A stretch of DNA of 64,000 bases from Candidatus Levybacteria bacterium GW2011_GWA1_37_16 (lineage in GTDB: Bacteria > Patescibacteriota > Microgenomatia > Levybacterales > UBA12049). Where the stretch lies: NCBI GenBank assembly GCA_943357985.1, contig CALRGR010000001.1:14731-78730 (forward strand), given 5' to 3'. The notes below the pieces were generated by a model. That model saw only the letters and a list, made by a program, of their open reading frames with translations. It was not told the DNA's origin and did not search any database. This document shows positions 198 through 50,951 of the stretch, piece by piece (the first letter of the stretch is position 1; the number at the start of each line of letters is the position of its first letter). A program made the translations under genes and the position numbers.

Positions 198-1919
198 ATG
201 ATATACTGTAAATCACAAGCCTGCCTGCCGGCAGGTATTATTATGCCTACTGATTTTTTCAAAAAAGGTTTTAATCTTCTTCTTGCCCGCCAAACTAATA
301 TTATTTCCGCAGCATTTGTAATCATGATAACTGTCATTTTGTCTCAGGCATTAGGTCTTGTTAGGCAAAGATTGCTTGCTTCCATATTTGGGGCATCAGA
401 TATTTTGGGAGTATACCTTGCATCATCCCGGCTTCCGGATTTTTTATTTCAGCTTGTTATTGCAGGCGCTTTATCATCTGCTTTCATCCCTATTTTTTCG
501 GGATACTTGGCAAAGAATAAAAGGGAAGAGGCAAATAGGCTTGGCTCAACACTTCTTGTTTTTAGCCTTCTAATTTTTTCAATTCTGGCAGTTATACTTT
601 TTATATTCGCTGAATACTTTTCAAACCTTATGGCTCCCGGATTTTCCCATGACCAGGTTATTTTAATGGGAAATTTAACAAGAATAATAATTTTTGGAGA
701 AATTTTATTTATGATTGGAAGTTTCTTGTCAGCAGTGCTCCAGTCTAATAATCATTTTTTTGTTGCAGGTATTGCAGCCGCTTTATATAATCTTGGAATA
801 ATTATTGGGATATTTGTACTTTCTCCAATCCTTGGAATATATTCTGCTGCTTATGGTGTGGTATTAGGAGCTCTCATATTTGTCTGCGCACAAATTCCAG
901 GAGTCTTAAAAGTTGGTTTTTCCTTTAAGCCGTCTTTAAATTTTAGAGAAAGCGGCATGAAAGAAGTTATACAGCTTATGTGGCCAAGAACAATTGGGAT
1001 AGCTATATTCCAGCTTGGAGCGCTTCTTACCGTGACTCTTGTTTCATTACTTCCGGATCCAGGTAGAAGTTATGTAATTTTTGATTATGCACAGATTTTA
1101 TCTTTTGCTCCAATTGTTCTTTTTGGTCAGTCAATAGCGCAAGCGGCTTTTCCGGTTTTATCCAAAGAGAAAGATCAACTTTCAGAATTTAAAACTGTTT
1201 TTACGAACAGCTTTAACCAGATACTTTACCTGATGCTTCCAATCTCCGCACTTTTTCTGGTTCTTAGGATTCCAATTGTCAGACTTATTTTTGGAGCAGG
1301 GGCTTTTGATTGGCAGGCAACAGTTTTAACAGGAAGAACGTTAGCTTTTTTTAGCATATCACTTTTTGCACAGGCTCTTGTGTATCTTGTGTCACGCGGG
1401 TTTTATGCAATGCATGATGCAAAAACGCCCCTTTATGTTGGTGTTTTTAGTACAGCATTAATGCTTTCTCTTGGATTTTTATTAATTTCTTTTTATCACT
1501 TTGGAGTTGAGGGAATTGCTTTCGCTTTTTCAATTGGAAACATTATTAACTTTCTTCTTCTTTTTATATTTCTTGATAAGAAAGTTAATTTTGACAAAAT
1601 TTCCATGAGTATTTCTATTACTAAAATATTTGTAGCAACTTTTTTTACAGGATTTGCTCTTTATATTCCAATAAAACTTTTAGATCAATTGGTTTTTGAT
1701 ACAACCAGAACTGTAAATCTTCTAATATTAACCGGGATTGCAAGCTTTGCCGGACTTAGTCTTTATCTTTTTTTAACATGGATTTTGAATGTTGAGGAGG
1801 CAAAAACTTTTCTTTATGTGTTTAGAAAAATCGGAAACCTGTCTCGCGGCAAGGCGGGCTGGAAAGAAATTCTGGGAAAAAGTGAAGAAGTCATCGGTCC
1901 TCCAAGAACCAACCCCTAA
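198..1919 (+). CDS. murJ: Lipid II flippase MurJ/MviN. The probable true start is the ATG at 243 (MPTDFF...).
   Basis: 573-aa polytopic membrane protein. The N-terminal block LARQ..ISAAFVIMITVILSQALGLVRQRLLASIFGASDILGVYLASSRLPDFLFQLVIAGALSSAFIPIFSGYL matches the conserved MurJ N-lobe. Confidence 0.85.
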   Translation: MIYCKSQACLPAGIIMPTDFFKKGFNLLLARQTNIISAAFVIMITVILSQALGLVRQRLLASIFGASDILGVYLASSRLPDFLFQLVIAGALSSAFIPIFSGYLAKNKREEANRLGSTLLVFSLLIFSILAVILFIFAEYFSNLMAPGFSHDQVILMGNLTRIIIFGEILFMIGSFLSAVLQSNNHFFVAGIAAALYNLGIIIGIFVLSPILGIYSAAYGVVLGALIFVCAQIPGVLKVGFSFKPSLNFRESGMKEVIQLMWPRTIGIAIFQLGALLTVTLVSLLPDPGRSYVIFDYAQILSFAPIVLFGQSIAQAAFPVLSKEKDQLSEFKTVFTNSFNQILYLMLPISALFLVLRIPIVRLIFGAGAFDWQATVLTGRTLAFFSISLFAQALVYLVSRGFYAMHDAKTPLYVGVFSTALMLSLGFLLISFYHFGVEGIAFAFSIGNIINFLLLFIFLDKKVNFDKISMSISITKIFVATFFTGFALYIPIKLLDQLVFDTTRTVNLLILTGIASFAGLSLYLFLTWILNVEEAKTFLYVFRKIGNLSRGKAGWKEILGKSEEVIGPPRTNP

Positions 1920-1935
1920 ATGTTATAATCTCCCA

Positions 1936-3699
1936 ATGAATCAATCTCAAATTAGGAATTTTTGTATTATTGCGCATGTTGACCACGGTAAATCCACGCT
2001 TGCGGATAGACTTTTGGATATTACGGGAACTGTTTCAAAGCAGAAGATGCAGGAGCAGTATCTAGATAGTAATCCAATCGAAAGAGAACGCGGAATAACT
2101 ATAAAACTTGCTCCAGTGCGTATGAACTATTCGCTCGGCGGAGAGGATTACGAACTGAATTTGATAGATACTCCAGGGCATGTAGATTTCTCTTATGAAG
2201 TTGTTAGAACTCTTTATGCTTGCGAAGGAGCGGTTTTACTTGTCGATGCGACCAAGGGAATTCAGGCTCAGACTGTTGCCAATTACAATTTTGCAAAGAA
2301 CCAGGGGCTTACTGTAATTGCCGCAATAAATAAGATTGATTTGGAGTCTGCCAGAATTGATGAGGTAGAGAAAGAACTCCTAGATACCTTTGGTTTTTCA
2401 AAAGAAGAAGTTCTCTTGGTGTCCGCAAAAACCGGAGATGGAGCCGAGGATATATTAAAAGCAGTTGTTGAGAAAATTCCCACTCCTTCAGGTTCATCTC
2501 AGTTTCCAACACAGGCCTATATCTTTGACTCTATTTATGATGAGCATAGAGGAATTGTAATATTTGTAAGAATTAAAAACGGAAGTATAAAAAAGGGAGA
2601 TGAAATAATTTTTCTTTCGGACAATACCTCCGCACTTGTTTTAGATGTTGGTTTTATGAAGCCACAGTTTGAAGTTTGTGGGGAATTACTAAATGGGGAG
2701 GTTGGGTACATAATTACAAATATTAAAGATATTGAGCAAGCAAAAGTAGGAGATACAATTACGACTACTAAAAATAGAGGCGCCGCGCTTCCGGGATTCT
2801 TAAGTCTTAAGCCTTTTGTATATTTATCTATTTATCCAACCTCAAATTCCGAGTATCAAAGTCTTAGGAAAGCGATTTATAAACTCAAACTTAATGATGC
2901 TTCACTTGTTACTGCACCTGAGCAATCAATAATTTTTGGCCCTGGTTTTAGATGTGGATTTTTAGGTCTCTTACATTCTCAAGTTGTAATAGAAAGGTTA
3001 GAAAAAGAAAGCGGAGTTGATGTATTTACAGCACCTCCAACAATTGAATATCTTGTTGATGGTAAATCTGTAACAAGTCCTAAAGATTTTAGAAATGATG
3101 CTCTTGAAACAAAAGAGCCCTATATAATAGGTGAGATTTATACACCGGTTCAATATGTTGGGGGACTTCTTGAAATTATAAATGCGAGGCGTGGAAGACA
3201 AAAAGATGTTTTCTACTTTGGTTCTCAGGCAAAGCTTATTTTTGAAATTCCACTTGCTTCTGTTGTTTATGATTTTTATGACAAACTAAAATCCGCTTCC
3301 AGCGGCTTTGCATCTTTTGATTATGAAATATCAGAATATAGAGTGTCGGATCTTGTCCGTGTGGATATCTCTGTAAATGAAGATATAATTCCTGAACTTT
3401 CTTTTATAGTTCACAAGAGCGAGATGGAAAGTTTTTCAAGAAGAATTGTAGAAGTTTTATGCGAGGCAATTCCAAAACATCAATTTGTTATTTCTGTTAG
3501 GGCACAGCAGGGAGCAAAAATTATTGCAAGCGATAAGATAGGAACACTTAGAAAGAATGTTCTATCTAAGATGTCCGGTGGAGATAGAACAAGGAAAGAT
3601 AAATTATTAGATAAGCAGAAAGAGGGAAAAAAGAAAATGAAACAGATTGGAAAAATTTCAATTCCTAAAGAGGCATTTTTATCCGTCCTCAAAGTTTAG
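1936..3699 (+). CDS. lepA: Elongation factor 4 (LepA)
   Basis: NFCIIAHVDHGKSTLADRLL G1 motif, a DTPGHVDF motif, and the LepA-specific C-terminus ...KQKEGKKKMKQIGKISIPKEAFLSVLKV. The start is taken at ATG 1936 (MNQSQIRNF); the ORF-track start at 1789 overlaps murJ. Confidence 0.9.
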   Translation: MNQSQIRNFCIIAHVDHGKSTLADRLLDITGTVSKQKMQEQYLDSNPIERERGITIKLAPVRMNYSLGGEDYELNLIDTPGHVDFSYEVVRTLYACEGAVLLVDATKGIQAQTVANYNFAKNQGLTVIAAINKIDLESARIDEVEKELLDTFGFSKEEVLLVSAKTGDGAEDILKAVVEKIPTPSGSSQFPTQAYIFDSIYDEHRGIVIFVRIKNGSIKKGDEIIFLSDNTSALVLDVGFMKPQFEVCGELLNGEVGYIITNIKDIEQAKVGDTITTTKNRGAALPGFLSLKPFVYLSIYPTSNSEYQSLRKAIYKLKLNDASLVTAPEQSIIFGPGFRCGFLGLLHSQVVIERLEKESGVDVFTAPPTIEYLVDGKSVTSPKDFRNDALETKEPYIIGEIYTPVQYVGGLLEIINARRGRQKDVFYFGSQAKLIFEIPLASVVYDFYDKLKSASSGFASFDYEISEYRVSDLVRVDISVNEDIIPELSFIVHKSEMESFSRRIVEVLCEAIPKHQFVISVRAQQGAKIIASDKIGTLRKNVLSKMSGGDRTRKDKLLDKQKEGKKKMKQIGKISIPKEAFLSVLKV

Positions 3700-4832
3700 A
3701 AAGCAAGAAGAAGCGCGCCTAATATAGAAAGCATTATTCCCATGGCTCCAATTCCTACAATTTTATCTCCTGGACCTACCACTAGGGGGGGCGGGGGGGT
3801 AACTGTAAGGATAGGCGTAGTTTCTGCCACAGTTGGTGCCACTGTTGGTATTGCTGTTGGGGCTACAACTACACCGCCAGAGCCACCCGTTGATCCTGCG
3901 CTTGTTCCTCCTGCGCTTGTTCCTCCTGTTACCGTTATGGTCGTTGTACACGTTGTAGTGGCGCTTGTTGAATTTTGATTATCGGTTAGTACTGCCGAGG
4001 CAGTGTATGTTCCTGCATTTTGATATGTATGAGAGATTTGCGCATTAACCTTATTTGTGCCAATTCCTCCTGCCTGTGTGACATCCCCTATTTTTCCATT
4101 TCCAAAAGCAAAGCTTACTTTAGTTATTGTTCCATCATCATCTTTCCCCGTTGCCGTAAGAGTTAATGAATAAGGAGCGGCGCCAGTTGCGCTTCTGTCA
4201 AGGACAAGGCCACTACAAATAGGATCCTTATTTGTAGATGTTGTAGCGGAACTTCCGCCTTTGATAGTAACTGTTGCAGGAGTTGGTTGGCCTGGAACAA
4301 GTACATCTTCATTTGCCTGGTCCTTTGCTCCTACGGATAATACTTGCGTCTGTGTCCTGACGACTTCGATAGATGTTGTTGCACCATTCGTTCCGGCGAT
4401 TGCCTTTAAATTAATAGTGGCAATTTTTGTTGATGCTGAAATAATTTTTGTCAGATCTGAGCCAACAGATAAGGTTATGGATACATTTCCGGTGGTGTAG
4501 GTTGGCCCTTGAAGTGCAGTATCGCCGAAAGCTACTTTGTTCCAGGTAAAACCGTTACTTTGGTCTATGCTGAATTTTGTCTCATCATATTTAACAGTTA
4601 ATTTCACAAAGGAAACTTGATTTGTTCCCGGATCCATCGTCACATCGACTTTCACTATATCTCCAATACTTGCGGGTTGGGTTTGAGGCGTAAGAATAAG
4701 AGTTGTGGCCGGCGCTGCCTGGCTGGTTACTTGCTGGCTTTTTTGAGTCAGAAACACGGTTAAAGGAATTGCAAAAAGAAGAACAATAATAAAACCTAGG
4801 AGGAAGATTTTTTTACCTGAAAATAATGACAT
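3696..4832 (-). CDS. Cell-surface protein with an N-terminal signal/TM anchor, a cohesin-like beta-sandwich region, a PKD domain, Gly/Thr-rich linkers and a C-terminal hydrophobic segment
   Basis: Probable start MSLFSGKKIFLLGFIIVLLFAIPLTVF at 4832; the ORF track extends to 4892. It has a PKD-like block (FAFGNGK...HTYQNAGTYTASAVLTD) and a cohesin-like block (DIVKVDVTMD...VSFVKLTVKYDETKFSI). The C-terminus reads PPPPLVVGPGDKIVGIGAMGIMLSILGALLLAF. The gene contains the G7CG7 tract and a 15-bp tandem duplication. Confidence 0.6.
   Translation of the reverse strand: MSLFSGKKIFLLGFIIVLLFAIPLTVFLTQKSQQVTSQAAPATTLILTPQTQPASIGDIVKVDVTMDPGTNQVSFVKLTVKYDETKFSIDQSNGFTWNKVAFGDTALQGPTYTTGNVSITLSVGSDLTKIISASTKIATINLKAIAGTNGATTSIEVVRTQTQVLSVGAKDQANEDVLVPGQPTPATVTIKGGSSATTSTNKDPICSGLVLDRSATGAAPYSLTLTATGKDDDGTITKVSFAFGNGKIGDVTQAGGIGTNKVNAQISHTYQNAGTYTASAVLTDNQNSTSATTTCTTTITVTGGTSAGGTSAGSTGGSGGVVVAPTAIPTVAPTVAETTPILTVTPPPPLVVGPGDKIVGIGAMGIMLSILGALLLAF
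3785..3799. repeat. Homopolymeric tract GGGGGGGCGGGGGGG (C7GC7 on the coding strand, encoding PPPP) inside the surface-protein gene
   Basis: Read directly from the sequence. These are by far the longest G/C runs in an AT-rich window. Confidence 0.9.
3896..3925. repeat. Perfect 15-bp tandem duplication (cctgcgcttgttcct x2) encoding GGTSAGGTSAG in the surface protein
   Basis: Read directly from the sequence. Confidence 0.85.
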
Positions 4833-4917
4833 ATTTGCGATACAAAAACGCCTAGATTTATCGTATATAAGAAAGAGGTGGGTGTCAAGCAACTTCCTGC
4901 CTTGTCGGCAAGGCGGG

Positions 4918-4947
4918 TTGACATTAAAGAAGCATTCTTGTTATACT
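4918..4947 (+). promoter_or_regulatory. Putative sigma70-type promoter for groES-groEL (TTGACA, 18 nt spacer, TATACT). The GC-rich palindrome cctgccttgtcggcaaggcggg lies immediately upstream at 4897-4918.
   Basis: Consensus hexamers read from the sequence. No CIRCE element is present here. Confidence 0.45.
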
Positions 4948-4968
4948 CTGTCAACTGATTTTTAAGCT

Positions 4969-6908
<1,940 letters not shown>

Positions 6909-6939
6909 AATCTTTTAGGTCTTCTGATATAATCGTTTT

Positions 6940-7266
6940 ATGCCGACAGTAAATATCTATTTTGAAGAAAATCCTGAGTTATAATCGTTAACCCCAGACC
7001 TTAAACAATTTATTGCTGAAAAGCTTACTTGTGGAGATATTAAATTAACCCCTGAGGAAATAAGCGTTAGATTTATTAGAATCGATGGGGGACAAATGAT
7101 CGGAGACATCGAACTTGAGATTTCGGCACATGCCTTTGAAGAAAGAGTAAAGAAGCAGGATGAGATTTGTCTGGAGGTCATGAATTATCTAAAAAATAAA
7201 AAACCAAGCCTTGGTAATGTAAAAGTTTGGTTGAAATTATCTGAATTGGGACACAGCTGGGAATAG
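6940..7266 (+). pseudogene. Tautomerase-superfamily (4-OT/PptA/DUF1904-like, Pro1) gene interrupted by one in-frame TAA at 6982-6984
   Basis: A single frame reads MPTVNIYFEENPEL*SLTPDLKQFIAEKLTCGDIKLTPEEISVRFIRIDGGQMIGDIELEISAHAFEERVKKQDEICLEVMNYLKNKKPSLGNVKVWLKLSELGHSWE*. The MPxVxIxF start and the roughly 107-codon length resemble PptA/4-OT-like tautomerases. It is absent from the ORF track because each piece is under 60 aa. Confidence 0.5.
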
Positions 7267-7340
7267 ACTAGATTGTCCCGTTAGCCTCTTTGTGTTATAT
7301 TATTCTGACTCCTGTCTGCCGCGCGGGCAGGGCTTTTTCT

Positions 7341-8180: not shown

Positions 8181-8197
8181 CTTGTCTGTCGGCAGGA

Positions 8198-16348: not shown

Positions 16349-17077
16349 ATGCATGATTTAACTCAAAGGCAAGTTGAAATACTTAAGAGTTTGATTGAAG
16401 AATATATAGAAACCGCAGAGCCTGTTGGTTCTGAAACGCTTGAGAAAAAGCACAATCTTAGTGCATCTCCCGCAACTATTAGAAATGAAATGGTAAAGCT
16501 CACAGATTTGGGGTATCTTAAAAAGCCCCATGCTTCTGCAGGCCGTGTTCCAACATCCGAGGGAATGCAATTTTATGTAAAGCAACTTATGAGAGAGAAA
16601 GAACTTTCCGTTGTCGAAGAAGTTGCCATGAGAGAAAAAGTTTGGGATTACAGAGAAAGATCAGACAGATTTCTTAGAGCTTTGGTAAAGTCTTTAGCAG
16701 ATAGAACAAAAGCTTTGGCAATTGCCACAACTGAGGACGGAGACGTATATATATCAGGATACGCGAATATTTTAGATATGCCGGAGTTTTTTGATATTGA
16801 CGTGACAAAAAATTTACTTGAAACACTTGATGAATTGGGAGTAATTCAAAGCATTTTCGCAGGAGTTATAGGAGATGAAACTATACATATTCTTTTGGGA
16901 GACGAATTAGGCCCAAGACTAAAAGGACCTTACGGATGTGTCTTTGCAAATTATAAATCACCAAAGCATGCAGGGGAAATTGGAGTTATAGGACCTTCCC
17001 GTCTAAATTATACTAATATTGTGCCAACGGTTAGATATTTTGGAGATTTAACATCTGAAATTGCACTAGGATGGTAG
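16349..17077 (+). CDS. hrcA: Heat-inducible transcription repressor HrcA
   Basis: LTQRQVEILKSLIEEYIETAEPVGSETL...SASPATIRNEMVKLTDLGYLKKPHASAGRVPT is a canonical HrcA N-terminus. Confidence 0.9.
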   Translation: MHDLTQRQVEILKSLIEEYIETAEPVGSETLEKKHNLSASPATIRNEMVKLTDLGYLKKPHASAGRVPTSEGMQFYVKQLMREKELSVVEEVAMREKVWDYRERSDRFLRALVKSLADRTKALAIATTEDGDVYISGYANILDMPEFFDIDVTKNLLETLDELGVIQSIFAGVIGDETIHILLGDELGPRLKGPYGCVFANYKSPKHAGEIGVIGPSRLNYTNIVPTVRYFGDLTSEIALGW

Positions 17078-17118: not shown

Positions 17119-17595
17119 ATGGCAAAGAAACAAACAAAAAAAATAGATGAGTCGCAAAAGAAAATTATAGAGCTTGAAGAGCAGGTTAAGAGAAGTTTGG
17201 CGGATTATCAGAACCTTGAAAAAAGAACGGCAGAAGAAAGAGGAAGTTGGATAAAAAAAGCAAATAAGGATTTAGTTTTAAGACTCTTGCCGGTTTTAGA
17301 TACATTAATGCTTGCAAATGCGCACGTACAAAATGAAGGTTTGATGTTGAGCATTAAACAATTTTTAGATATATTAAGAAATGAGGGAATTGAAAAAATA
17401 GAAACAGAAGGGCAGCTTTTTGACCCTGTGACAATGGAAGGAGTAGGCTTTGTAGAAGGAAACCCTTCGACAGGCTCAGGGCCATGGGAAGGAAAAGTAG
17501 TTAATGAAATAAGAGCAGGATTCAGATATAATGGTGAAGCAGTGTTAAGACCGGCACAAGTCCTTGTTGGTTCTGCAAAGCAGAACACAAATTGA
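17119..17595 (+). CDS. grpE: Nucleotide exchange factor GrpE
   Basis: LEEQVKRSLADYQNLEKRTAEERGSWIKKANKDLVLRLLPVLDTL is the GrpE coiled-coil/four-helix region. The ATG at 17119 is preferred over the TTG at 17107. Confidence 0.9.
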   Translation: MAKKQTKKIDESQKKIIELEEQVKRSLADYQNLEKRTAEERGSWIKKANKDLVLRLLPVLDTLMLANAHVQNEGLMLSIKQFLDILRNEGIEKIETEGQLFDPVTMEGVGFVEGNPSTGSGPWEGKVVNEIRAGFRYNGEAVLRPAQVLVGSAKQNTN

Positions 17596-17633: not shown

Positions 17634-19574
17634 ATGGGAAAAATAATAGGAATAGATTTAGGAACAACAAATAGTGCAGTAGCTGTTATGGAGGGTGGAT
17701 CACCAAAAGTTATTCACTCTGCAGAAGGTCGTAATGTAATCCCATCTGTTGTTGACCCGATTTCTCATATTGTGGGAGATGTTGCAAAAAGACAATTAAT
17801 ATTAAAGCCTAAAACAACCATTTTTTCCATAAAGAGACTTATGGGAAAAAGATTTAAAGACGAGTCAGTTCAAAGGGACATGAAATGGCTTCCTTACACA
17901 GTTAAATCAGGTAGGGATGGAATGGCTGTTGTTGAAGTTGATGGAAAAACTCTTACTCCTCAGGAAGTATCAGCGGTAATTTTGCAAAAAATTAAAGCAG
18001 ATGCAGAAAGCTATCTTGGCGGAAAAGTAACACAGGCTGTAATTACAGTCCCTGCATATTTTGATGATTCACAAAGACAGGCTACGAAACAGGCAGGAGA
18101 AATTGCAGGCTTGGAAGTTCTGCGTATTATAAATGAACCGACAGCCGCAGCTTTGGCTTACGGACTTGATAAGAAAAATGCTCACACAATTGCAGTTTAT
18201 GATTTGGGTGGAGGAACTTTTGATATCTCAATTTTGGAGCTTGGAGAAGGAGTTTATGAAGTAAAGTCAACAAACGGAGATACACATTTGGGAGGAGATG
18301 ATTTTGATCAGGCAATTATTGGTTACCTTGCAGACGAGTTCAAAAAAGAAAATGATGTAGATTTAAGACGCGACCCACAGGCACTTCAAAGGCTACGTGA
18401 ATCTGCTGAAAAAGCAAAAATAGAATTGTCAACTTCGCAGGAAGCAGAAATTAACCAACCGTTTATAACTCAAGGAGCAAGTGGACCGCTTCATTTGACC
18501 ATGAAGTTAACCCGTTCAAAGATGGAGCAGATAGTTGATGATCTAATTGCCAAAACGATAAAGCCGGTTGAGCTGGCCTTAAAAGACGCAAAGTTAAAAG
18601 CAACTGATATTGATGAAGTGGTTTTAGTTGGTGGAATGACAAGGGTGCCAAAGATTGTTGAGGTAGTTACTAAATTCTTTGGTAAAGAGGTTAATAAGTC
18701 TGTTAATCCGGATGAAGTTGTTGCAATTGGAGCAGCAATTCAGGGCGGAGTTTTGGGCGGAGAAGTAAAAGATGTTTTGCTTTTGGACGTAACACCGCTA
18801 ACTTTGGGGCTTGAGACTTTGGGTGGAGTTTCAACACCTCTTATTGAAAGAAATACAACAATTCCAACCTCAAAATCTCAGATTTTCTCAACTGCTGCAG
18901 AGAATCAAACCCAAGTTGAAATAAATGTTTTGCAGGGAGAGCGTTCAATGGCAGCAGATAATAAGTCACTCGGACGTTTTGCATTAGACGGAATTCCACC
19001 TGCTCCAAGAGGAGTCCCGCAAGTTGAAGTTACATTTGATATTGATGCAAGCGGAATACTTTCTGTTAAGGCGGCAGATAAAGCAACGGGAAAAGAACAG
19101 AGCATTAAGATTACAGGTTCAACTGGACTTTCAAAAGAAGAAGTTGAAAAAATGCAAAAAGATGCAGAAGTTCATGCAACAGAAGATGCAGAGAAAAAAG
19201 AAAAAGTTGAAGTTAGAAACATGGCCGATTCTCTTATATTTACAGCAGAAAAAACCTTGAAAGATGCCGGAGACCTTTCGACAGGCTCAGGGCAAGTAAA
19301 GATTTCGGAAGAAGATAAAAAAGAGGTTGAAGAAAAAATTGCTGTACTTAAGTCAATTCTCGACACCGGCTCTAAGGAAGATTTGGAAACAAAAACTAAA
19401 GAACTATCGGACGCTTTACAAAAAGTAGGAGCGGCAATGTCCAGTCAAGGACAACAGTCAACTTCTAACGAACAACAATCAACGGAGGACAGCTCGGAAG
19501 AAAAATCCTCCTCCGATAAAGCTTCGGAGGACAAGAAGGACGAAGAGCCCGTTGAAGGAGAAGTAGTTAATTAG
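17634..19574 (+). CDS. dnaK: Chaperone DnaK (Hsp70)
   Basis: [22 protein letters not shown]...[12 protein letters not shown]...[18 protein letters not shown] are canonical Hsp70 motifs. Confidence 0.97.
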
Positions 19575-20417: not shown

Positions 20418-21311
20418 ATGGCAAAAGATTATTATCAATCCTTAGGGGTTACAAAATCTGCATCTGCAGATGAGATAAAAAAAGCTTACAGAAAATTAGC
20501 GCTTCAATACCACCCGGACAGGAATAAATCTAAAGAGGCTGATGGAAAATTCAAAGAGGTAACCAAGGCTTATGAAGTTTTATCAGATGCGGGCAAGAAG
20601 CAGACGTATGACCAATATGGACATTCTGCTTTTGATCCTTCGGCAGGCTCAGGACCTTTTGGGCAGGGTGGACAACAGGGTGGTCGTTATGGTCCATTCA
20701 CATATTCTTATACGACTAACGGCGGAGGACCAGCAGAAGGATTTGATTTTGATTCTGGAGGATTTTCTGACCCTTTTGATATCTTTGAGCAATTTTTTGG
20801 AGGCGCAAATCCCTTCGGCGGAGCTCAAGCTCGCAGACGACAGACTTACTCTTTAACAATAGATTTTAAGGATGCTGTTCATGGCGCGGAGAAGAAAGTA
20901 ACTATTGGAGGTAAAACTCAAAATATAAAAATTCCGGCAGGAGTTGATAATGGTTCAAGAATGAGATTTGGAGATTTTGATGTTGTCTTTGAAGTAAAAG
21001 GAAATCCAAAATTTAAAAGAGAAGGAAATGACATAATCTCCGAGCAAGAACTTTCTTTTGCCGATGCAGCTTTAGGAATAGAAGCAGAAGTTGAGACGAT
21101 TCATGGAAAATTAAAAATAAGAATTCCTTCAGGAACGCAACCAAATACTGTTATTAGGCTTGGAGGAAAAGGTGTGCCAAATCTTAGGGGTTCCGGACAC
21201 GGCGACCATTATGTTAGAATAAAATTAGTTGTTCCTAAGAATTTAACATCCCGTCAAAAAGAGTTGCTCCGCGAGTTTGAAGGAACAAAAAATAAGAAAA
21301 CCTGGTTCTAA
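20418..21311 (+). CDS. dnaJ: DnaJ-class co-chaperone lacking the Cys-rich zinc-finger domain (type II/CbpA-like)
   Basis: A J-domain with HPD (YYQSLGV...[15 protein letters not shown]), a G/F-rich region and C-terminal substrate-binding domains. No CxxCxGxG repeats are present. Confidence 0.85.
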
Positions 21312-33422: not shown

Positions 33423-33689
33423 ATGGATCCTGCCCAGGTAGCACTATTTTTAGTAATAATAGCTTTGACCATCCTCCTTTTGGTTTTAGGTATTCAGGTC
33501 TTTTTTATTCTTAAAGACCTTAGGCAAACAATTGCCAAAACAAACAAAGTTTTAGATGAGGCAGGACTAATTACAGAAAGTGTTTCAGCCCCCTTATCAA
33601 GCATATCCGCTTTAGCAATGGGACTTAAAACAGGAGCATCTCTTGCAGGCTTTTTTAAAGGAAATTCTAATAAAAAACATCATGAATGA
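33423..33689 (+). CDS. Small membrane protein (DUF948/YtxH-like; N-terminal TM followed by a helical region)
   Basis: 88-aa ORF with a TM at residues 6-30. Confidence 0.35.
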   Translation: MDPAQVALFLVIIALTILLLVLGIQVFFILKDLRQTIAKTNKVLDEAGLITESVSAPLSSISALAMGLKTGASLAGFFKGNSNKKHHE

Positions 33690-34032
33690 CAATAGAGGAA
33701 ATGGTTCTTCGGGGTTTATATTGGGTCTTATTATAGGCGGAGCCGCTGTATTTTTATTGGGTACCGATAAGGGAAGGAAGATTTTAAAATCTTTGACCGA
33801 AGAAGGATTTGGGGAATTTTCACAGTTTATAGAAAGAGCCGAAGAAGAGATTGAAGATCAGGATGAGGTTGCAGTTCCTAAAGTTAGAAAAGCAAGAGCC
33901 CGCCTTGACGACGCGAGGCAGGTTATCGAAGAAGAATTTGAAGAGCCTATCAGTAATGGAGTAAAAAGCAACGGCCACACGTATGAGCCTGTTATAAAAA
34001 GAAGATTCTTCCGCCGCACTCCAAAATCCTAA
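33682..34032 (+). CDS. YtxH-like general stress protein (N-terminal TM plus an acidic coiled coil)
   Basis: GFILGLIIGGAAVFLLGTDKGRKILKSL resembles the YtxH N-terminus. The start is taken at ATG 33682; the ORF track starts at 33643. Confidence 0.4.
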   Translation: MNDNRGNGSSGFILGLIIGGAAVFLLGTDKGRKILKSLTEEGFGEFSQFIERAEEEIEDQDEVAVPKVRKARARLDDARQVIEEEFEEPISNGVKSNGHTYEPVIKRRFFRRTPKS

Positions 34033-36281: not shown

Positions 36282-37009
36282 TATATTTTTTCAAGCCTTG
36301 CTTTTATAACAAGTCTTTTCCATATTGTCCCGGGCGGAGTACAGGTAATTAAGGTTAAATATGAGTTGTCGTAATTTTGGGTAAACACAGATGTATCATT
36401 GGCATCAACGACGTAGATATTATAAATCTTATATGAATAAGTAACACCACCAACATTGGTAAAAATTTGATCTCCCGTTTTAAGATCCAATACATGTGCA
36501 AAAATTGTTTTGTAATCATTCGGATCATAAAGCTGAGGAAGTGTGGAGTGCCCAAATATTACAGCATTTCCTGCATTTGGTGGAGTTGATGTCCCCATGT
36601 AATTAACTAAATGTTTTGAAAGGTCATAGTCGCTTGTTGAAACCTCTGCATTTTTAATATTGAGGGCAGGAATTGAGAGAGTATAGGATAAAGATTTGCC
36701 GGAGTTTGCTTGAACTCTAAAACCGGGAAACCAGTTTTGGGCATTTGTGTAATCGACTCCGGATATTGAACTTTTTGCCTGCGCAATAAGCATTTGAATA
36801 AGTGCCGGATTAAGAACGTTTTTTCTGGGAATTGGAGCTTCAATGTTTTGAGATGTAAGAGCAGGAGCAGAATAAATTTGCCATAAAATAAGAGGAGAGA
36901 ATATGTATAAGCATACTAAAATACCAATTGTAAAAAGTCCGAGACCAACTCCTTTTATAAATTTTTTTAAATTTATTTTGTTTCTCTTTTTATAGTAGAT
37001 TTTACTCAT
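36281..37009 (-). CDS. Sortase-family transpeptidase with an N-terminal membrane anchor
   Basis: Catalytic His (AVIFGHS), the Cys motif YLTLITCTPPG (TLxTC), and a downstream Arg (WKRLVIKARL). N-terminal TM GLFTIGILVCLYIF. The gene overlaps the upstream gene end by 8 nt, so they form an operon. Confidence 0.75.
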   Translation of the reverse strand: MSKIYYKKRNKINLKKFIKGVGLGLFTIGILVCLYIFSPLILWQIYSAPALTSQNIEAPIPRKNVLNPALIQMLIAQAKSSISGVDYTNAQNWFPGFRVQANSGKSLSYTLSIPALNIKNAEVSTSDYDLSKHLVNYMGTSTPPNAGNAVIFGHSTLPQLYDPNDYKTIFAHVLDLKTGDQIFTNVGGVTYSYKIYNIYVVDANDTSVFTQNYDNSYLTLITCTPPGTIWKRLVIKARLEKI

Positions 37010-39245
37010 TGGAATTAATTGAAAACTTTATTTTTCCTGCTGTAGGAAGAGTTTTTGGGAAAAGGGGGATGTTGGGAGAAATGTTAATATTAGCATTTGA
37101 TATCTGAGAAATATTTGTCAAAATATTTTGAGCAGTTGTAATGTTTTTTCCACTAATTTGTTTTGCAAGATTTGCCTCGTCAATCTTTGGAAGAAGAAAG
37201 CCGGAAATCTCTAAAGTTGTCCCTGCTTCACTACCACTTTTTACTTTAATATTTTTTGCATTTGTTGCTATCCTGCTTTCATCAAAAATGAGACTGTCTT
37301 GGATTTGTAAAATTGTTTTGGCAAAAGAAATTAAGTCACTTTTATTGTAAGTAATGCTTTTATAACTAACGTCTGCTTTTAGAGTTACTTTACTTGTCTC
37401 ATCTCCCTCTTTCTTATCAAAGTCTTTTTTGCCTAGAGTCTCACTTACAAATACAGGAAGAATAACTCTATCCCCCGAAGCCTTTTTTGAAACATCATTT
37501 CTTGCTTTTTCTTCTAAATTTTTAATAAGATCGCTTTCAAGTTTTGCAACATCATCTTTTGAAACAACAGTTATGCTTTTTTTAGTTCCACCCGAAAAAG
37601 GATTATCATTTTTTGCAGCGATTGATGAGTCGCTAAAAGAAAATTTGGTGTTGGACGGCAGGTTATAGTTAGTTCCAATATCCGCTGCCGTAACTGTTAC
37701 ATTTGTTGTACCAGGATTAGTGGGTGAAAATTGGTCTTTAGCAGATGCCGATGCAACTGTTATCGATTTGTCGATTATAAATTTAAGATTATTTGAAGAG
37801 GTGATTGTGCTATTTGCTGGAATATTTATCGAAGATAGATTTTGATTAAAAATAGTTACAGTTCCTTTTGCAGCAGTTCCAATATTTTTTTTTCCAGTTG
37901 CATTCGTTGTCGTACTCCCATTTTCGGTTACATCTACAAACTCGGCCGCAATTATGTTTTTACTGGCATCTGTTGAGGAGCTTGTACTAAAAACTACGTC
38001 TTTTTCCTCGCTTACCTTTTTGCCTTCCAAAGAAAGTGTGACTGTTGCATTTCTGCCAAAGAGATAAACAGAAAGAAGAAGTAAGAAGAGTATTAAAAAA
38101 AGAGCTGGAATAGCAATAAATTTATTTCCTTTTGGAATGGAAATAGATGAAATAATGGGAAGTTTTGAAAAGCTGTTTTTTAGTACTTTAAATAATTTTG
38201 GCAATATACTTATTGCTCCTAAAAGTACTTCGTTTGCGTTTGTAGATAAAGGTTTTCTTTCTTCTATGACTTGTTGTTGGTCGGGTATCTCGTCTATTAT
38301 ATTTGAAACAGCCATATTTTCCTCTACTGCTTCAGTTTTTTGTTGGATGTTTTTTGCAACATCTCTATCTTTGACAAATCCAAAAGGTTCTTCCGGTAAG
38401 TCTTCTGAAATTTCTGTTGATGTTTTTTCAACGGATAGAGACTCCTTGGTATTTTTTTCTGTTATTTTAGAAGTAGTCCCCTTAGGTGTTTCACCTAAAA
38501 TTTGAAATCCCATTTCTGATGCAGCGCCAGATAAAACTGCCTTTGCATCAAATCCTTGTTCAAGATTGCTTATTTGAGGAAGATGTAAAAAAGGTAAAGT
38601 TTTGCTCCATGTATGTCCGATAAATTCCTGAGTTAGATCTTTTTCTCCATTAAAAATGATTACGCGGGATGGAAGTACTTCTACGTCTTCAAAATATTTG
38701 AGGAGTGTATCAACTGTTTGGGTAGTACTTCCTTCAAGCTTTGCGCTTTTTACTTCAATAATTTTTCCGGCCCTAATTAAAGAAACTGAAACGTAGTCTT
38801 TGTCAATTTCTGCCAAAACTGCAGAAACAGGCGCGCCTTCTTCTTTTGCCAGGAAGTGTGCTACGGCTTCCGTAGTAATAAGAAAACCGACTGGTACGAG
38901 TCCAAGCTCCTCGCTTATTTTTTTAAGTTTCCCTAAATATTCTTTTTTAATTTTACTGTCTTCAATCCAATTTTCTTTTAATCCAAAAATTGTTTTTTGG
39001 GTTTCAACATTCCCAGGAAGTACACTTTCTGCTTTTGAAATTGTCTTATCCACTACGTTTAGTAGCTGTTCATCTGTTGCTGTTTCTATGGAATCTTGAA
39101 AATTTTCAGAGGCTTGATTTATAATCTTTACTGTTCCGCCTGATTCTTCAAAAATGACGGCGTTTGCCTTATTGTGTCTTAGCACCAGGACTAAAAAATA
39201 TGAAAGATCTTCTTTTTTTGCGAAAATTTGGAGAGATAGTTTCAT
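37002..39245 (-). CDS. Large bitopic membrane protein. It has a cytoplasmic N-terminal domain of about 350 aa (possibly an FtsA/PilM-like actin-fold domain), a single TM, and an Asn/Ser/Thr-rich extracellular domain of about 370 aa ending in LPTAGKIKFSINSNE.
   Basis: TM helix FIAIPALFLILFLLLLSVYLF at about residue 360. The extracellular part is beta-rich and low in charge. The gene is co-operonic with the sortase gene. Confidence 0.45.
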   Translation of the reverse strand: MKLSLQIFAKKEDLSYFLVLVLRHNKANAVIFEESGGTVKIINQASENFQDSIETATDEQLLNVVDKTISKAESVLPGNVETQKTIFGLKENWIEDSKIKKEYLGKLKKISEELGLVPVGFLITTEAVAHFLAKEEGAPVSAVLAEIDKDYVSVSLIRAGKIIEVKSAKLEGSTTQTVDTLLKYFEDVEVLPSRVIIFNGEKDLTQEFIGHTWSKTLPFLHLPQISNLEQGFDAKAVLSGAASEMGFQILGETPKGTTSKITEKNTKESLSVEKTSTEISEDLPEEPFGFVKDRDVAKNIQQKTEAVEENMAVSNIIDEIPDQQQVIEERKPLSTNANEVLLGAISILPKLFKVLKNSFSKLPIISSISIPKGNKFIAIPALFLILFLLLLSVYLFGRNATVTLSLEGKKVSEEKDVVFSTSSSTDASKNIIAAEFVDVTENGSTTTNATGKKNIGTAAKGTVTIFNQNLSSINIPANSTITSSNNLKFIIDKSITVASASAKDQFSPTNPGTTNVTVTAADIGTNYNLPSNTKFSFSDSSIAAKNDNPFSGGTKKSITVVSKDDVAKLESDLIKNLEEKARNDVSKKASGDRVILPVFVSETLGKKDFDKKEGDETSKVTLKADVSYKSITYNKSDLISFAKTILQIQDSLIFDESRIATNAKNIKVKSGSEAGTTLEISGFLLPKIDEANLAKQISGKNITTAQNILTNISQISNANINISPNIPLFPKTLPTAGKIKFSINSNE

Positions 39246-39250
39246 ATAAC

Positions 39251-41140
39251 CTAAACATTCGCGTAAATTCTTCTAAGGCCGCGCCCAAGATTTTCCTGCT
39301 TAAATATAGTAAACCTTTTTAGCTCTCCTGTAAAATTAACATGAGGCCCGCCACAAAACTCCTTAGAATAAGCCTCTTGTGGTGAGCTTGTCGAACCACC
39401 TATAAAATAAACTTTCACATTATCCTCATATTTTTCATCAAAGAGTCCAATGGCTCCAATATCTTTTGCTTTTTCAAGTGGAAGCATTTCAAAATGAACA
39501 GGTAAATTCTCTTTAATCTTCTTATTTATGATTTCCTCGATTTTTTTAACTTCTTCTTCCGTCAGGGCTTTATCGTAATTAAAATCAAATCTTACACGCT
39601 GCGAGGTTATGTTAGATCCGGCCTGATGAATATGATCTCCCAGTACGTCACGAATTGCCTGGTGAAGTAAGTGAGTTGCTGTATGTCCCATTATAGTTTG
39701 CGTATTTGTGTCGGCAAGTCCGCCAGCAAATTTTTGCGCAGCACCTTCTCTTGAGAGTTTTTGGTGTTCTTCCATTTTGTTTGCAAATGCCCGGTCGTCA
39801 AAAGTGTAACCAAGACTCTTAATTTGCGAAGGAGATAATCCATGCGTTGAATATAAAATGAAAGCATCTTCTGCTGAAATTTTTGATATTCCCATAAGTT
39901 CATCTCCAACCTTCCTGCTCGCCTCGCTTCGAAGCGGGCCGGCAGGCAGGGGCGGATATTTTTTGTGCATAAATTCTTTAGCTTTTTTTTGAGTTTGATT
40001 GTAACTTTGCTGTTCTTCTAAAATTACATTTTTTATTTTTTCAAAATCTTTCGCTAGTTTTCCATCTGTATTTTTATATTGCTCAACGATAATCTTTATG
40101 ATTGGGGAGATATCGGAAGATTCAAGTTGGAATAAACTATCTAAGCTTCGTCTTAAAAGTCTTCTCAAAATATACCCTTGCTCTTTGTTTGATGGAATAA
40201 CGCCGGCAGAAATTATAAACGAAGATGCTACGAAGTGATCTGCGATAATTCTTATCTTTTCTTTATTTTCGTCGTATGTTTTTCTTGTAATTTTTTCGAT
40301 AGTTTTAATAACAGGACTAAGCAGAGATGTTTGAAAAATGTCATTTTGATTTTCCGTTGCTGCTAATAATCTTTCGAGTCCTCCGCCAAAATCAACGTTT
40401 TTTTGTGGAAGTTCAACAAATGATCCATCTGATTTTTTTTGATATTGCATAAAAACTGAGTTTCCAATTTCTAGATATCTTCCACAATCACAATTTGTAT
40501 GACACTTTTGTCCAAACTTTTTGTCATGCTCTGTTTCAAAATCAAAAAATATTTCTGTGTCTGGTCCTCCGGGTTCGCCGGCCGGCATATTTTGGGGAAG
40601 TCCCGCTCTTGACCACCAATTCTTATCAACTCCATAAAAAGAAATTTTTTCGCGTGCATCAAGTCCTGCTTTTTCAAAAATTTCTTTCCAGATTTCATAA
40701 GACTCGTTGTCTTTTTCAATATCATTAAAACCATTAAAAATGGTTACGTATAATTTTTCTACGGGGAGTTTTAACCTATCTGTTAAAAATTCCCAAAGCC
40801 ATGGGATTTGTTCTGCTTTAAAATACCCGCCTCGACTCGTTGTCTTTTGCGAGGCGGGCTTTCCCAAAGACCAGTTGCCTAGCATTCTAAAAAAGGTTGT
40901 ATGTCTGTTGTCTCCAATTTCTTCAATGTCTTGTGCCCTAAAACAATTTTGTACATTAACAAGTCTTTTGCCTGCAGGATGTTTTCCTCCTAATAAATAT
41001 AGAACAAGAGGTTGCATCCCGGAACTGGTAAATAAAGTTGTTGGATCATTTTCCGGAACTAGTGAAGAGTTTGGAATTCTAATATGATCGCGGCTTTCAA
41101 AGAATTTAATATACTTTTCAATAATTTGCGAGGCTGTCAT
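39251..41140 (-). CDS. alaS: Alanyl-tRNA synthetase (catalytic plus editing domains, lacking the C-Ala domain)
   Basis: LFTSSGMQP...RLVNVQNCFRAQDIEEIGDNRHTTFFRMLGNWS class II motifs. HTATHLLHQAIRDVLGDHIHQAGS is the editing-domain zinc site. Confidence 0.9.
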   Translation of the reverse strand: MTASQIIEKYIKFFESRDHIRIPNSSLVPENDPTTLFTSSGMQPLVLYLLGGKHPAGKRLVNVQNCFRAQDIEEIGDNRHTTFFRMLGNWSLGKPASQKTTSRGGYFKAEQIPWLWEFLTDRLKLPVEKLYVTIFNGFNDIEKDNESYEIWKEIFEKAGLDAREKISFYGVDKNWWSRAGLPQNMPAGEPGGPDTEIFFDFETEHDKKFGQKCHTNCDCGRYLEIGNSVFMQYQKKSDGSFVELPQKNVDFGGGLERLLAATENQNDIFQTSLLSPVIKTIEKITRKTYDENKEKIRIIADHFVASSFIISAGVIPSNKEQGYILRRLLRRSLDSLFQLESSDISPIIKIIVEQYKNTDGKLAKDFEKIKNVILEEQQSYNQTQKKAKEFMHKKYPPLPAGPLRSEASRKVGDELMGISKISAEDAFILYSTHGLSPSQIKSLGYTFDDRAFANKMEEHQKLSREGAAQKFAGGLADTNTQTIMGHTATHLLHQAIRDVLGDHIHQAGSNITSQRVRFDFNYDKALTEEEVKKIEEIINKKIKENLPVHFEMLPLEKAKDIGAIGLFDEKYEDNVKVYFIGGSTSSPQEAYSKEFCGGPHVNFTGELKRFTIFKQENLGRGLRRIYANV

Positions 41141-41187
41141 CGTGAGCTCTATTATAGCAGAATTTTACTTTTTCTAAGCTAACGTTG

Positions 41188-41790: not shown

Positions 41791-41798
41791 GAGCGGAA

Positions 41799-42416: not shown

Positions 42417-42432
42417 AGAGGTATTATATCAA

Positions 42433-43125
42433 TTATGATGCTTTTTGGATTGGGGCAAGGGCGCCTGCCGGAATTCCGCTTTGCTCTCTGGCTGTAGTTT
42501 TCTCTTGAAGTTTTGTAGCAATTTTAATTTTGTCCTCAATGGGTAACTCTTTCATTTTAGAAATTGCAGCTTCATTCTGAATCACACCGCCTGCAGTTGT
42601 GAGATCAAAAGCATTAATAGCAGTATCCCAATCATTTGCTTCTAAAGCTCCGGTTCCAAATCCTTCAAGAAAAGCTCTAGTATTGTCCTTATAGTATGTA
42701 TCATCTTCTGGATATGGTTGTTCTCTTTTTCCATAGCTTTCTCTGAGATGGTTTTCCCTTTTCTGCCAAGCTTTGTATAAATCTCTTGGTAGATCAGATC
42801 TTTTGTATTCTCCCACGCCAGTTTTTTCAATAGCTAAGTTATCGCCATAAGCATTTGGCCCAAATAGTTGTTTCACATCTGCGTCGCTTATTAATTGGAT
42901 GGTATTTATATCTTGGCCATCAAAATTTTCATAATAGCTTTTGCCATTTGCATTTATTTTCTCAAGGAGTTGTTGGTTTAAGACTTCTTTATGAGAATCT
43001 AAGTCCTGCTGGGATATTGCAAGAGCAGAAAGAATATCAGGAGATATTGTCCCTGGTTTTTTAGGTTGTTCAGTGATTTCTGCTGGTGGGCTTATCCCAT
43101 CTGCTCCTGGTCCTTGTGGTTCCAT
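42433..43125 (-). CDS. Hypothetical protein (230 aa, acidic, Pro/Gly-rich N-terminus, no TM)
   Basis: ORF only; no motif recognised. Confidence 0.35.
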   Translation of the reverse strand: MEPQGPGADGISPPAEITEQPKKPGTISPDILSALAISQQDLDSHKEVLNQQLLEKINANGKSYYENFDGQDINTIQLISDADVKQLFGPNAYGDNLAIEKTGVGEYKRSDLPRDLYKAWQKRENHLRESYGKREQPYPEDDTYYKDNTRAFLEGFGTGALEANDWDTAINAFDLTTAGGVIQNEAAISKMKELPIEDKIKIATKLQEKTTAREQSGIPAGALAPIQKAS

Positions 43126-43168
43126 TTAATAAATCTTTGCATGAAAAGAGAGTATTGTCAATGGGCTA

Positions 43169-43197
43169 TTGACAGAGTGGTGATACTGTGATATAAA
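43169..43197 (+). promoter_or_regulatory. Putative rpoBC promoter (TTGACA, 17 nt, TGaTATAAA). The -35 element lies inside the perfect palindrome TGTCAAT-gggct-ATTGACA.
   Basis: Hexamers and palindrome read from the sequence. A weak hairpin plus T8 (43225-43254) follows in the leader. Confidence 0.5.
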
Positions 43198-43289
43198 TAA
43201 TTCACTTTAAACAATCTCGTTTGTAGGGGGTTTTGTGCCCTCTGCATTTTTTTTGTTGAGGTACTGCCGAACTCATTTATTATTTCCAG

Positions 43290-50445: not shown

Positions 50446-50456
50446 TACATACTCGT

Positions 50457-50951
50457 ATGCCAACATTATCACAGCTTGCTAAAAAAGGAAGAACTAAAAA
50501 GGTAAAGAAAATACGCTCAACTGCGATGCGGCGTTTTTATAATGCAAAAGAACAGCGCTACAAGAATTTGGTAGCACCTATGAAAAGAGGAGTTGTGACT
50601 TTAGTTAAAACAATGACTCCAAAAAAGCCAAACTCCGCACTTCGCAAAGTTGCGCGTGTGAGGCTTTCAAACCGTATGGAAGTTACAGCATATATTCAGG
50701 GAGTTGGACATAGTCTTTCCGAGCATGGAATCGTTTTGGTTCGTGGAGGAAGAGTTAAAGATTTACCGGGTGTTAAATACCACATAGTGCGTGGTAAATA
50801 TGACTTACTGGGAGTTGAAGGAAGAAAGACATCAAGAAGTAAATATGGAGCAAAAAGAAGCGGTGGAGGAGCAGCTGCTCCAAGAGTAGCAACAGGAACA
50901 CCAGCACCAGCAGCCGCCGAGGCGCCTGCGGCAGCCGCACCAACAGAATAA
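50457..50951 (+). CDS. rpsL: 30S ribosomal protein S12 with an Ala/Pro-rich C-terminal extension of about 30 aa
   Basis: [12 protein letters not shown]...[18 protein letters not shown]...[19 protein letters not shown], then ...[29 protein letters not shown]. Confidence 0.93.

Follow-up and report, generated by a model that had tools for sequence, protein, structure and literature searches.

Repetitive extragenic palindromic sequences (REPs) have stems of 5–13 bp and loops of 2–20 nt, are found singly, both in intergenic DNA and within genes, in flexible loops, carry GTAG or CGTC at one terminus, and are thought to be non-autonomous and mobilized in trans; intragenic copies have been documented in Opitutus terrae and Rickettsia conorii (PMC3733652). 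The Rickettsia palindromic elements (RPEs) are palindromic selfish DNA of ~100–150 bp that lies in frame in many housekeeping genes of a reduced, AT-rich genome and encodes a conserved peptide module (PMC10969869). Mitochondrial GC clusters, usually 30–50 nt long with AG/TAG terminal repeats taken as target duplications, are mostly intergenic and are also seen as in-frame insertion polymorphisms in var1; their loops change fast, clusters merge or nest, they are regarded as transposable by an enzyme that is not known, and in Magnusiomyces the ribosome bypasses their coding copies (PMC8811140). Here we analyze a 64-kb stretch of DNA, referred to below as the window, from a member of Candidatus Levybacteria (Microgenomates, candidate phyla radiation, or CPR). 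Genomes of CPR bacteria (Patescibacteria) are small, streamlined, and usually described as repeat-poor. The window nonetheless carries a family of short GC-rich palindromes, and we hold with moderate confidence that these are REP-like selfish or neutral mini-insertion elements, made of a hairpin only and surviving only at permissive positions.

The yeast mitochondrial GC clusters are the best analogue in behavior. They and the PstI palindromes of Neurospora mitochondrial DNA are, like the elements here, short GC-rich palindromes spread across an AT-rich genome; our elements are ~70%–85% GC in a genome of 37.5% GC (the value for the window), and show in-frame presence or absence in murJ, alaS, and the gene for a DHH-family protein. 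They differ from GC clusters in being bacterial rather than organellar or fungal, in lacking an AG/TAG-type duplication, and in having coding copies that are in frame and presumably translated. With REPs, which measure 20–40 bp, they share a short imperfect palindrome forming a stem-loop. The initial annotation had proposed REP-like elements, and in the strict sense of the term this does not hold, as neither GTAG nor CGTC stands next to the stem in any of the eight copies whose flanks were read directly (E1–E8, below). They differ from REPs in other ways as well: no head-to-head dimers were seen among nine copies, more than half of the copies are intragenic where REPs are predominantly extragenic, there is no CCA-like tail, and only nine copies were counted over 81 kb, against tens to thousands for REPs. 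No gene for the REP-associated tyrosine transposase (RAYT), which in REP systems is flanked by the same repeats, was found nearby, and the host belongs to the CPR. Like RPEs, the elements are inserted in frame in unrelated housekeeping genes and add peptide segments; unlike RPEs, they are bare hairpins of 16–33 nt, five to ten times shorter. Their sizes (16–48 nt with composites), the lack of a unique internal region, and the lack of a target duplication set them apart from both RPEs and miniature inverted-repeat transposable elements, the latter being 50–500 bp long with terminal inverted repeats and a target-site duplication. We rate them as untagged REP-like or GC-cluster-like elements in a lineage where such elements are not expected. 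Literature searches found no report of them in CPR/Patescibacteria, which is not proof that none exists.

Hairpins and empty sites

The pattern CTGCC-N0-6-GGCAG has five matches in the window against 0.13 expected, and CCYGCC-N2-30-GGCRGG also has five, against 0.045 in 200 dinucleotide shuffles and none when the arm order is reversed, an enrichment far beyond chance. In 1.58 Mb of other low-GC CPR loci the second pattern is found 25 times (2.2 expected; four in reversed arm order), and when the window is pooled with 1.1 Mb of related CPR loci, CCTGCC..GGCAGG ranks first among GC-rich 6-mer hairpin arms; further family copies lie at other sites in other CPR loci (L008, L058, L061, and L232). 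A k-mer enrichment over all GC-rich islands of the CPR loci was uninformative, the islands being heterogeneous. The arms of all members follow CCYGCC(Y)YG ... CR(R)GGCRGG, rich in C on the left and in G on the right, and the center that they enclose is usually YCGG or CGG. They are 16–33 nt long, with composites up to 48 nt, and have stems of 6–9 bp and loops of 3–15 nt. Most are predicted to fold with −13 to −21 kcal/mol, and z against shuffles is −2 to −5 for seven of nine copies; of the eight confirmed sites, six clearly outdo shuffles (z −2.0 to −4.95), and the strongest folds are those starting at 220, 4896, 25414, and 40826 (z −3.4 to −4.95).

Eight of the nine palindromes cited in the initial annotation exist. 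It had placed them at 232–249, 1843–1862, 4897–4918, 7313–7334, 8183–8197, 25421–25440, 39925–39958, and 40846–40877, from which the coordinates given below for E1–E8, in that order, depart by 1–20 nt. The ninth, in the Ala/Pro tail of ribosomal protein S12 (50904–50941), is not a member: it does not fold (z +0.15), and the tail, which had been taken for a product of the family, is ancestral, being present in every S12 homologue tail inspected (59 of ~120 listed, all 142–204 aa). An exact pattern match at 3991–4004 was rejected as conserved coding sequence of a PKD domain. One candidate not cited before, E9, brings the count to nine copies in the window, ~1 per 7 kb, five of them intragenic.

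For comparison, loci of relatives (L numbers) were fetched via dnaK (one genome per species), via groEL, and by exact-protein look-ups of close homologues of MurJ and of alanyl-tRNA synthetase (AlaRS); the dnaK retrieval places the window in Candidatus Levybacteria, its best relatives having DnaK identities of 87%–88%. Contigs from three other public samples are 99.98%–100% identical to the window, elements included, and the palindromes are therefore not assembly artifacts. The comparisons support reading E1, E2, E3, E5, E6, and E8 as precise and recent insertions, the orthologous loci of relatives being empty and the extra DNA being exactly or nearly the hairpin. For six of eight, then, the proposal of mini-insertion elements, some adding in-frame segments to essential proteins, is upheld; for E4 the relatives merely have no hairpin, and at E7 the closest relative has a different insert. 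At base-level empty sites the boundaries of the extra DNA follow the hairpin: on the left it opens with the first C of the arm, give or take ~1 nt, and on the right it closes on or close to the last G. Base-level alignments show 0, and at most 1, duplicated target nucleotides, and no convincing conserved target motif was seen at these sites; on the 5′ side, the flank tends weakly to finish in A or AC (GAAAC, GAGAC, CAGAC).

Among the noncoding copies, E1 (220–235; E1, E3, and E5 are listed without a strand) is the 16-nt hairpin CCTGCCTGCCGGCAGG in the murJ 5′ leader, between a conserved TGaTATACT −10 box and the ATG at 243 (−13 kcal/mol, z −4.0). It has no counterpart in L288 (MurJ 88% identical in amino acids), L289 (83%), L204, or L206, although the flanking DNA of all four can be aligned to the base. 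In L288 and L289 the promoter and leader are otherwise almost identical, with cacaatccctattATG or cacaagcgttactATG in place of the cacaag, CCTGCCTGCCGGCAGG, tattattATG of the window. E3 (4896–4917; CCTGCCTTG-TCGG-CAAGGCGGG; −14.8 kcal/mol, z −3.9) is a 22-nt hairpin between the −35 boxes of the divergent promoters of a PKD-domain protein gene and groES. Both TTGACA boxes are kept in L289, L204–L207, and L214, all without the hairpin, and the junction in L289 reads AACTG directly followed by TTGACA. E5 (8181–8197; CTTGTCTGTCGGCAGGA; −5.9 kcal/mol, z −2.0) is a decayed copy of 17 nt that takes up the whole interval from one stop codon to the other of the convergent PEGA/SH3 and UbiA-family genes; these stop codons, 17 nt apart in the window, are 0–1 nt apart in L005, L010, L204, and L213. 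E4 (7311–7332, + strand; CCTGTCTGCCGCGCGGGCAGGG; −14.7 kcal/mol, z −2.1) is a 5′ leader hairpin just 3′ of a TG-TATATT promoter, after which come CTTTTTCT and the PEGA/SH3 start codon; its surroundings include a promoter-like site (7273–7301) and a terminator-like call. The PEGA leader in L204, L207, L209, L213, and L224 has the −10 box, then 14–25 nt, and no hairpin; the comparison gives no exact insertion boundaries for E4. To judge by their letters, E4 and E5 resemble family members whose left arm has undergone C-to-T changes.

Among coding copies, E2 (1838–1858, + strand) is a 21-nt in-frame insert, CCTGTCTCGCGGCAAGGCGGG, in the C-terminal region of murJ that encodes LSRGKAG; its arms are CCTGTCTCG-CGG-CAAGGCGGG, and its hairpin is degenerate (z −0.99). 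A gap of exactly 21 nt is found at its position in L288, L289, and L204–L206, and the MurJ product has 558 aa in the window, where most of ~120 homologues have 551–555 aa and a few 560–563. E6 (25414–25433, + strand) is CCTGCCTG-TCGG-CAGGCAGG, a perfect 8-bp stem (−16.9 kcal/mol, z −3.4) in the gene for the DHH-family protein (Pfam DHH). With one extra base it makes a 21-nt in-frame insert, LPVGRQD, in a disordered linker just before the C-terminal xEWLxPKxYKG; 17 relatives keep this peptide behind a hypervariable linker, and in a protein-level comparison L016 reads ..EPDDLNPPTDWL without the insert. The candidate E9 (33899–33922, + strand; CCCGCCTTG-ACGACG-CGAGGCAGG; −13.9 kcal/mol, z −3.8) is a pattern match in a small, poorly conserved open reading frame (ORF; 33643–34032). 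No orthologues were found for this ORF or for that at 42433–43125, hence there is no empty-site comparison for E9. The coding copies, which sit in surface loops or disordered linkers, measure 21, 21, 33, and ~45 nt, multiples of three without stop codons, and the noncoding ones 16, 17, 22, and 22 nt; selection on the reading frame would leave such a division.

Around the noncoding copies several other features deserve mention. An operator for HrcA (CIRCE), a conserved inverted repeat that stands between promoter and start in groES/dnaK operons, was considered for E3 and rejected, E3 being upstream of the −35 box and absent from all relatives. A CIRCE-like inverted repeat (AGCAGTCACT-N-AGTGAC/T) does occur downstream of the groES −10 box, ahead of the start codon, in L204, L207, L213, and L214; it is shrunk to CTGTCAACTGA in the window (4918–4968) and in L289, although the window has hrcA (16349–17077). 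In the same spacer of L289 (9900–9960) there is a different 14-nt hairpin, CGAGTTTGACTCGG, flanked by duplicated TCAAGC, which looks like an independent mini-insertion, here with a 6-nt target duplication. Intrinsic termination was rejected as an account of all copies: a U-run is present only at E4, which sits after a promoter and before a start codon, and E1, E2, E3, E6, E7, and E8 lack one or are inside genes. In the groEL–PEGA interval (6940–7266), a small ORF starting MPTVNIYF, tautomerase-like by eye, has an in-frame TAA after 14 codons and is possibly a pseudogene or a mis-start; L204 and L207 have no gene there.

The window contains, as had been correctly inferred, murJ, lepA, the PKD-domain protein gene, groES/EL, the PEGA/SH3 gene, the UbiA-family gene, hrcA-grpE-dnaK-dnaJ, the DHH-family gene, alaS, rpoBC, and the S12 and S10 operons. 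An Rfam scan at gathering thresholds matched no family, and a scan for tRNA and tmRNA genes found none. A −10 box lies ~6–20 nt before the start codon in most genes; a TATAAT-like box ends 6–20 nt 5′ of the start codon, without a Shine-Dalgarno sequence, at lepA, nusA, rnj, ftsK, alaS, S12, S15, nth, and others. Because −10 boxes stand so close to starts and Shine-Dalgarno-like sequences are few (13 of 40 genes), short leaders would seem to be the norm here, and the sequence suggests that leaderless or very short-leader mRNAs are widespread in the window.

Hot spots in alaS and a sister family

Turnover of the elements is seen in alaS, where an alignment of 120 Levybacteria-type AlaRS homologues has at least three positions (A, D, and E) with short inserts that come and go. 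E8 (40826–40858, − strand; −20 kcal/mol, z −4.95) occupies hot spot A as a 33-nt in-frame insert, CCCGCCTCG-N15-CGAGGCGGG, encoding PASQKTTSRGG. In the closest relative, L203 (AlaRS 90% identical in amino acids), a 33-nt gap coincides with the hairpin to within one base. Homologous palindromic inserts are found at the same codon in L284–L287 and in ~11 of the 120 AlaRS homologues (PAS..RGG or PAR..AGG), and in L284–L287 the palindromes survive changes of the arms in pairs (CCCGCCTCG/CGAGGCGGG, CCTGCCCGC/GCAGGCGGG, CCTGCCTCG/CAAGGCGGG). E7 (39908–39955, − strand; −21.3 kcal/mol, z −2.65) is a composite insert at hot spot D that encodes PPLPAGPLRSEASRKV; it runs CCTGCCTGCCGG, then a nested CCCGCTTCG-AAG-CGAGGCGAG, then CAGG, and its letters point to an E1-like element whose CCGG center is followed by a nested hairpin of E8 type. 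Hot spot D holds six or fewer residues in 57 of the 120 homologues and longer inserts in 63, and L203 has a different insert at this position, of the 19-nt class described next. Site A is thus filled in the window and empty in L203, and site D is filled by different elements in each. On a neighbor-joining tree the site-A insert requires nine state changes for ten carriers, the same as under random assignment, which hints, if roughly, that gain, precise loss, or lateral exchange is frequent. Just downstream of alaS, at 37002–39245 (− strand), a 747-aa protein with a weak Baseplate_J-like domain is encoded; its gene adjoins a sortase-like gene in relatives, an arrangement kept in L284–L287.

A second family, GAYCCTTCG-N-GCTCAGGRC (PSTSSGQ in proteins), has at least seven copies in the window. 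In dnaK, CTTTCGACAGGCTCAGGGCAAGTA (19275–19298, + strand) is a 24-nt in-frame insert encoding LSTGSGQV; other copies lie in grpE (17464–17483, an in-frame insert), in dnaJ (20637–20655), after tuf (57964–57987, − strand, followed by a T-run and terminator-like), at 58514–58532, at 60420–60447, and at hot spot E of alaS (39371–39397, − strand). The grpE, dnaK, and dnaJ copies share one reading frame, PS[TA]GSG; those in dnaK and grpE add eight residues each, and no relative in the alignments (33 for dnaK, 31 for grpE) has them. Like the palindromes, this family makes exact in-frame inserts (24 nt in dnaK and grpE) and has intergenic copies in both orientations, and it uses common hot spots (the dnaK codon and AlaRS sites D and E), and the two share a TCGGCAGG core; this half-site, noted at the outset, is real at 8189, 20640, 25422, and 58517. 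It differs in having a short 4–7-bp stem with a conserved 11-nt loop, where the palindromes have a long GC stem with a tetraloop, and in being asymmetric, hence oriented, and far more widespread among AlaRS homologues: more than half of the 120 have inserts at sites D and E, mostly of this class (PSxxSGQ), with some of an LPAG/LPKG type.

The two families behave alike and share sites, because the dnaK insert of the window follows a conserved ..AGD codon at which L017 has, at the identical codon, the 21-nt palindrome CCTGCCTGACGGCAAGGCAGG (CCTGCC..GGCAGG); the link to the 19-nt motif that the initial annotation had drawn is supported by this. The L017 insert also matches the murJ insert E2 at 17 of 21 nt. 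A possible likeness between the 19-nt motif and 16S rRNA at its 5′ end (GATCCTGGCTCAGGAC) was entertained but not retained. Peptides of this class (PSTSSEQ, PSASSGQ) are also inserted in the S12 tail of homologues P0251, P0288, and P0289; the S12 protein (50457–50951; homologues P0241–P0360, 142–204 aa) ends in 25–35 residues rich in Ala and Pro that begin with a conserved APRVxxGT. DnaK (19485–19535) and ribosomal protein L3 (59329–59379) both have acidic Ser/Glu/Lys tails at the C-terminus, which have in common a 51-nt stretch of 73% identity, and the DnaK copy holds an 8-bp hairpin, TCCTCCGA..TCGGAGGA.

Mobilization and alternative explanations

We favor selfish or neutral insertion because the contexts fit no one function (a promoter spacer predicted to be untranscribed, two leaders, a junction of convergent stop codons, and loop regions in three proteins unrelated to one another) and because copies are absent from relatives whose promoters and genes are conserved. 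In addition, different family members replace one another between close relatives at the AlaRS and DnaK hot spots, where gain, loss, and replacement would be rapid. New copies would be made from existing ones and pasted as a folded single strand by a trans-acting enzyme encoded outside the window. The leading candidate is an HUH/Y1 transposase of RAYT- or IS200-like type, because a hairpin-only anatomy without duplication matches the products of hairpin-recognizing HUH/Y1 enzymes: such single-strand transposases (RAYT, IS200/IS605) yield just this anatomy (PMC3733652). Purifying selection would remove insertions that are out of frame or in intolerant positions, and the surviving copies would decay by C-to-T/A changes and disappear when the hairpin is precisely deleted or overwritten. 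What they do to the host would be incidental, namely a stable 5′-end stem-loop on two otherwise near-leaderless mRNAs, a hairpin between convergent genes, and 7–16 extra flexible residues in MurJ, the DHH protein, and AlaRS.

A tblastn probe for Y1 genes, an approximate IS200-like sequence, found them only in L068 (Anaerolineales) and L032 (Gottesmanbacteria, CPR), and none in the window. The product of the L032 gene (1138–1927) is a Y1_Tnp protein of 224 aa that in NCBIfam comes closest, below cutoff, to the REP-associated tyrosine transposase; the gene is flanked on both sides by 39-nt inverted repeats, copies of CCGGATGTGTCTAGCTGTATCACACCTGGTGTGATA. On these features the unit is RAYT- or IS200-like, which places the enzyme class in the CPR group. 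Elsewhere in the window, an ORF at 55900–56229, among short overlapping ORFs between a cupin gene and tuf, has HTH_28, HTH_32, and HTH_Tnp_1 domains and no catalytic domain, and its region (55820–56830) is probably a decayed insertion sequence.

Several observations weigh against the selfish-insertion reading. Neither the window nor 17 kb of flanks from the same genome encodes a transposase of any HUH type; those flanks also have no copies of the family, whose density is modest. The hairpins that flank the L032 gene are unrelated in sequence to the palindromes, and the classical REP tag is absent. No presence/absence polymorphism was found among four near-identical population samples (99.98%–100% identity), and therefore past insertion only is supported, not current mobility. 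The closest relatives are only ~74%–85% identical in DNA, which leaves room for a stepwise local origin of the noncoding copies, and the AlaRS tree is poorly resolved, making the count of gains and losses rough.

Could the hairpins instead have been selected in place as signals, with 5′ stem-loops that stabilize or attenuate the murJ and PEGA mRNAs, a bidirectional PEGA/UbiA terminator, and a PKD/groES operator? E1 and E4 start within a few nucleotides of a predicted transcription start, E4 is followed by a U-run and draws a terminator-like call, E5 lies exactly between convergent stop codons, L061 has a similar hairpin after a TATAAT box upstream of a gene, and RNase J is encoded in the window. 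Yet no copy is conserved in relatives that keep the promoters and genes, five of nine copies are in coding sequence, E3 lies upstream of both −35 boxes, would not be transcribed, and is unlike the CIRCE-like repeat that relatives have downstream of the groES promoter, and no one function suits all contexts. We regard selection in place, or exaptation of single copies into 5′ stem-loops or terminators, as unlikely, and the operator sites proposed as an alternative in the initial annotation find no support on the same grounds, the hairpins being absent where promoters are conserved and their contexts mutually inconsistent.

It is likewise unlikely that the palindromes arose without transposition, made locally at indel-prone permissive sites by template switching, hairpin-templated repair, or symmetric duplication of arms, with (CCTG)n/(CAGG)n around CCGG favored. 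Such an origin would fit arms that resemble tandem duplications, (CCTG)2..(CAGG)2, the L203 site D with its left arms triplicated and right arms duplicated, the evolution of alaS site D much faster than its flanks and towards perfect palindromy, and the repeated striking of the same codon positions. It is harder to reconcile with arms that are not derived from flanking sequence, with inserts of 21–22 nt that are 17/21 identical in different genes of different species, with coding copies that need one in-frame step, and with site-A inserts of the window and L285 that differ at only ~4 of 33 nt although the proteins are 66% identical.

CPR bacteria encode competence systems, and short foreign or paralogous patches might enter by natural transformation and microhomology-mediated or homologous recombination, with no element-specific enzyme. 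The inserts at sites A and E are patchy and independent of the tree at identical positions, and the elements are far GC-richer than the host genome. The perfect palindrome CCTGCCTGCCGGCAGGCAGG recurs in unrelated, mostly GC-rich contigs, and the copy in the GC-rich viral-collection contig L157 has a GTAG head like genuine REPs. Matches of viral contigs to CCTGCCTGNCGGCAGG were set aside, being mostly in GC-rich contigs and probably unrelated REPs or chance; they show only that a perfect 20-nt palindrome is widespread. The ends of the inserts, however, match the hairpin and not flanking donor patches, and a flanking Lys codon at alaS site A, specific to the clade of the window and L203, is retained, so we consider the import of patches improbable. 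DNA uptake sequences are a very improbable reading of the elements, as is an artifact of chance or of the composition of GC-rich codons: uptake sequences of other bacteria do form inverted pairs, also inside genes, and some GC-rich islands are plain Ala/Pro/Gly coding (the S12 tail, the groEL GGM tail), but ~1 copy per 7 kb is far under known uptake-sequence densities (~1 per kb), every copy tested is an insertion and not a motif made by point mutation, and shuffle controls exclude chance; the S12 tail and the PKD match at 3991 were removed as compositional or native coding. Shuffles and base-level empty sites together largely refute both ideas.

Probable selfish hairpin DNA in reduced genomes

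Under the selfish-insertion reading, hairpin DNA of 16–33 nt has been written into the leaders and frames of essential genes, those of the MurJ flippase and AlaRS, and via the sister family those of DnaK and GrpE. The elements would explain many odd GC-rich, low-complexity peptides in CPR protein predictions (LPAGRQ, PAS..RGG, PSTSSGQ), and the inserts matter for annotation, alignment, and phylogenomics, as well as being natural markers of permissive loops in core proteins. As a bacterial counterpart of mitochondrial GC clusters and intragenic REPs, in which selfish hairpin DNA remodels core proteins, they would offer a bacterial system in which to study the mobilization of palindromic mini-elements, GC clusters and untagged REPs among them.

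More tentatively, and we are inclined to doubt it, CPR bacteria may host a distinct class of mobile elements that are ultra-short, carry no tag, and consist of a hairpin only; the CCYGCC..GGCRGG and PSTSSGQ sequences would be two families of this class, with base-precise integration without target duplication, repeated homing to the same codons of dnaK, grpE, alaS, and murJ, and movement between lineages. In a version that does without RAYT, the competence machinery would take up nuclease-resistant hairpin single strands, which then integrate. If CPR bacteria do host such a mobile class, it would be a general, ongoing source of loop and linker insertions in reduced-genome proteomes.

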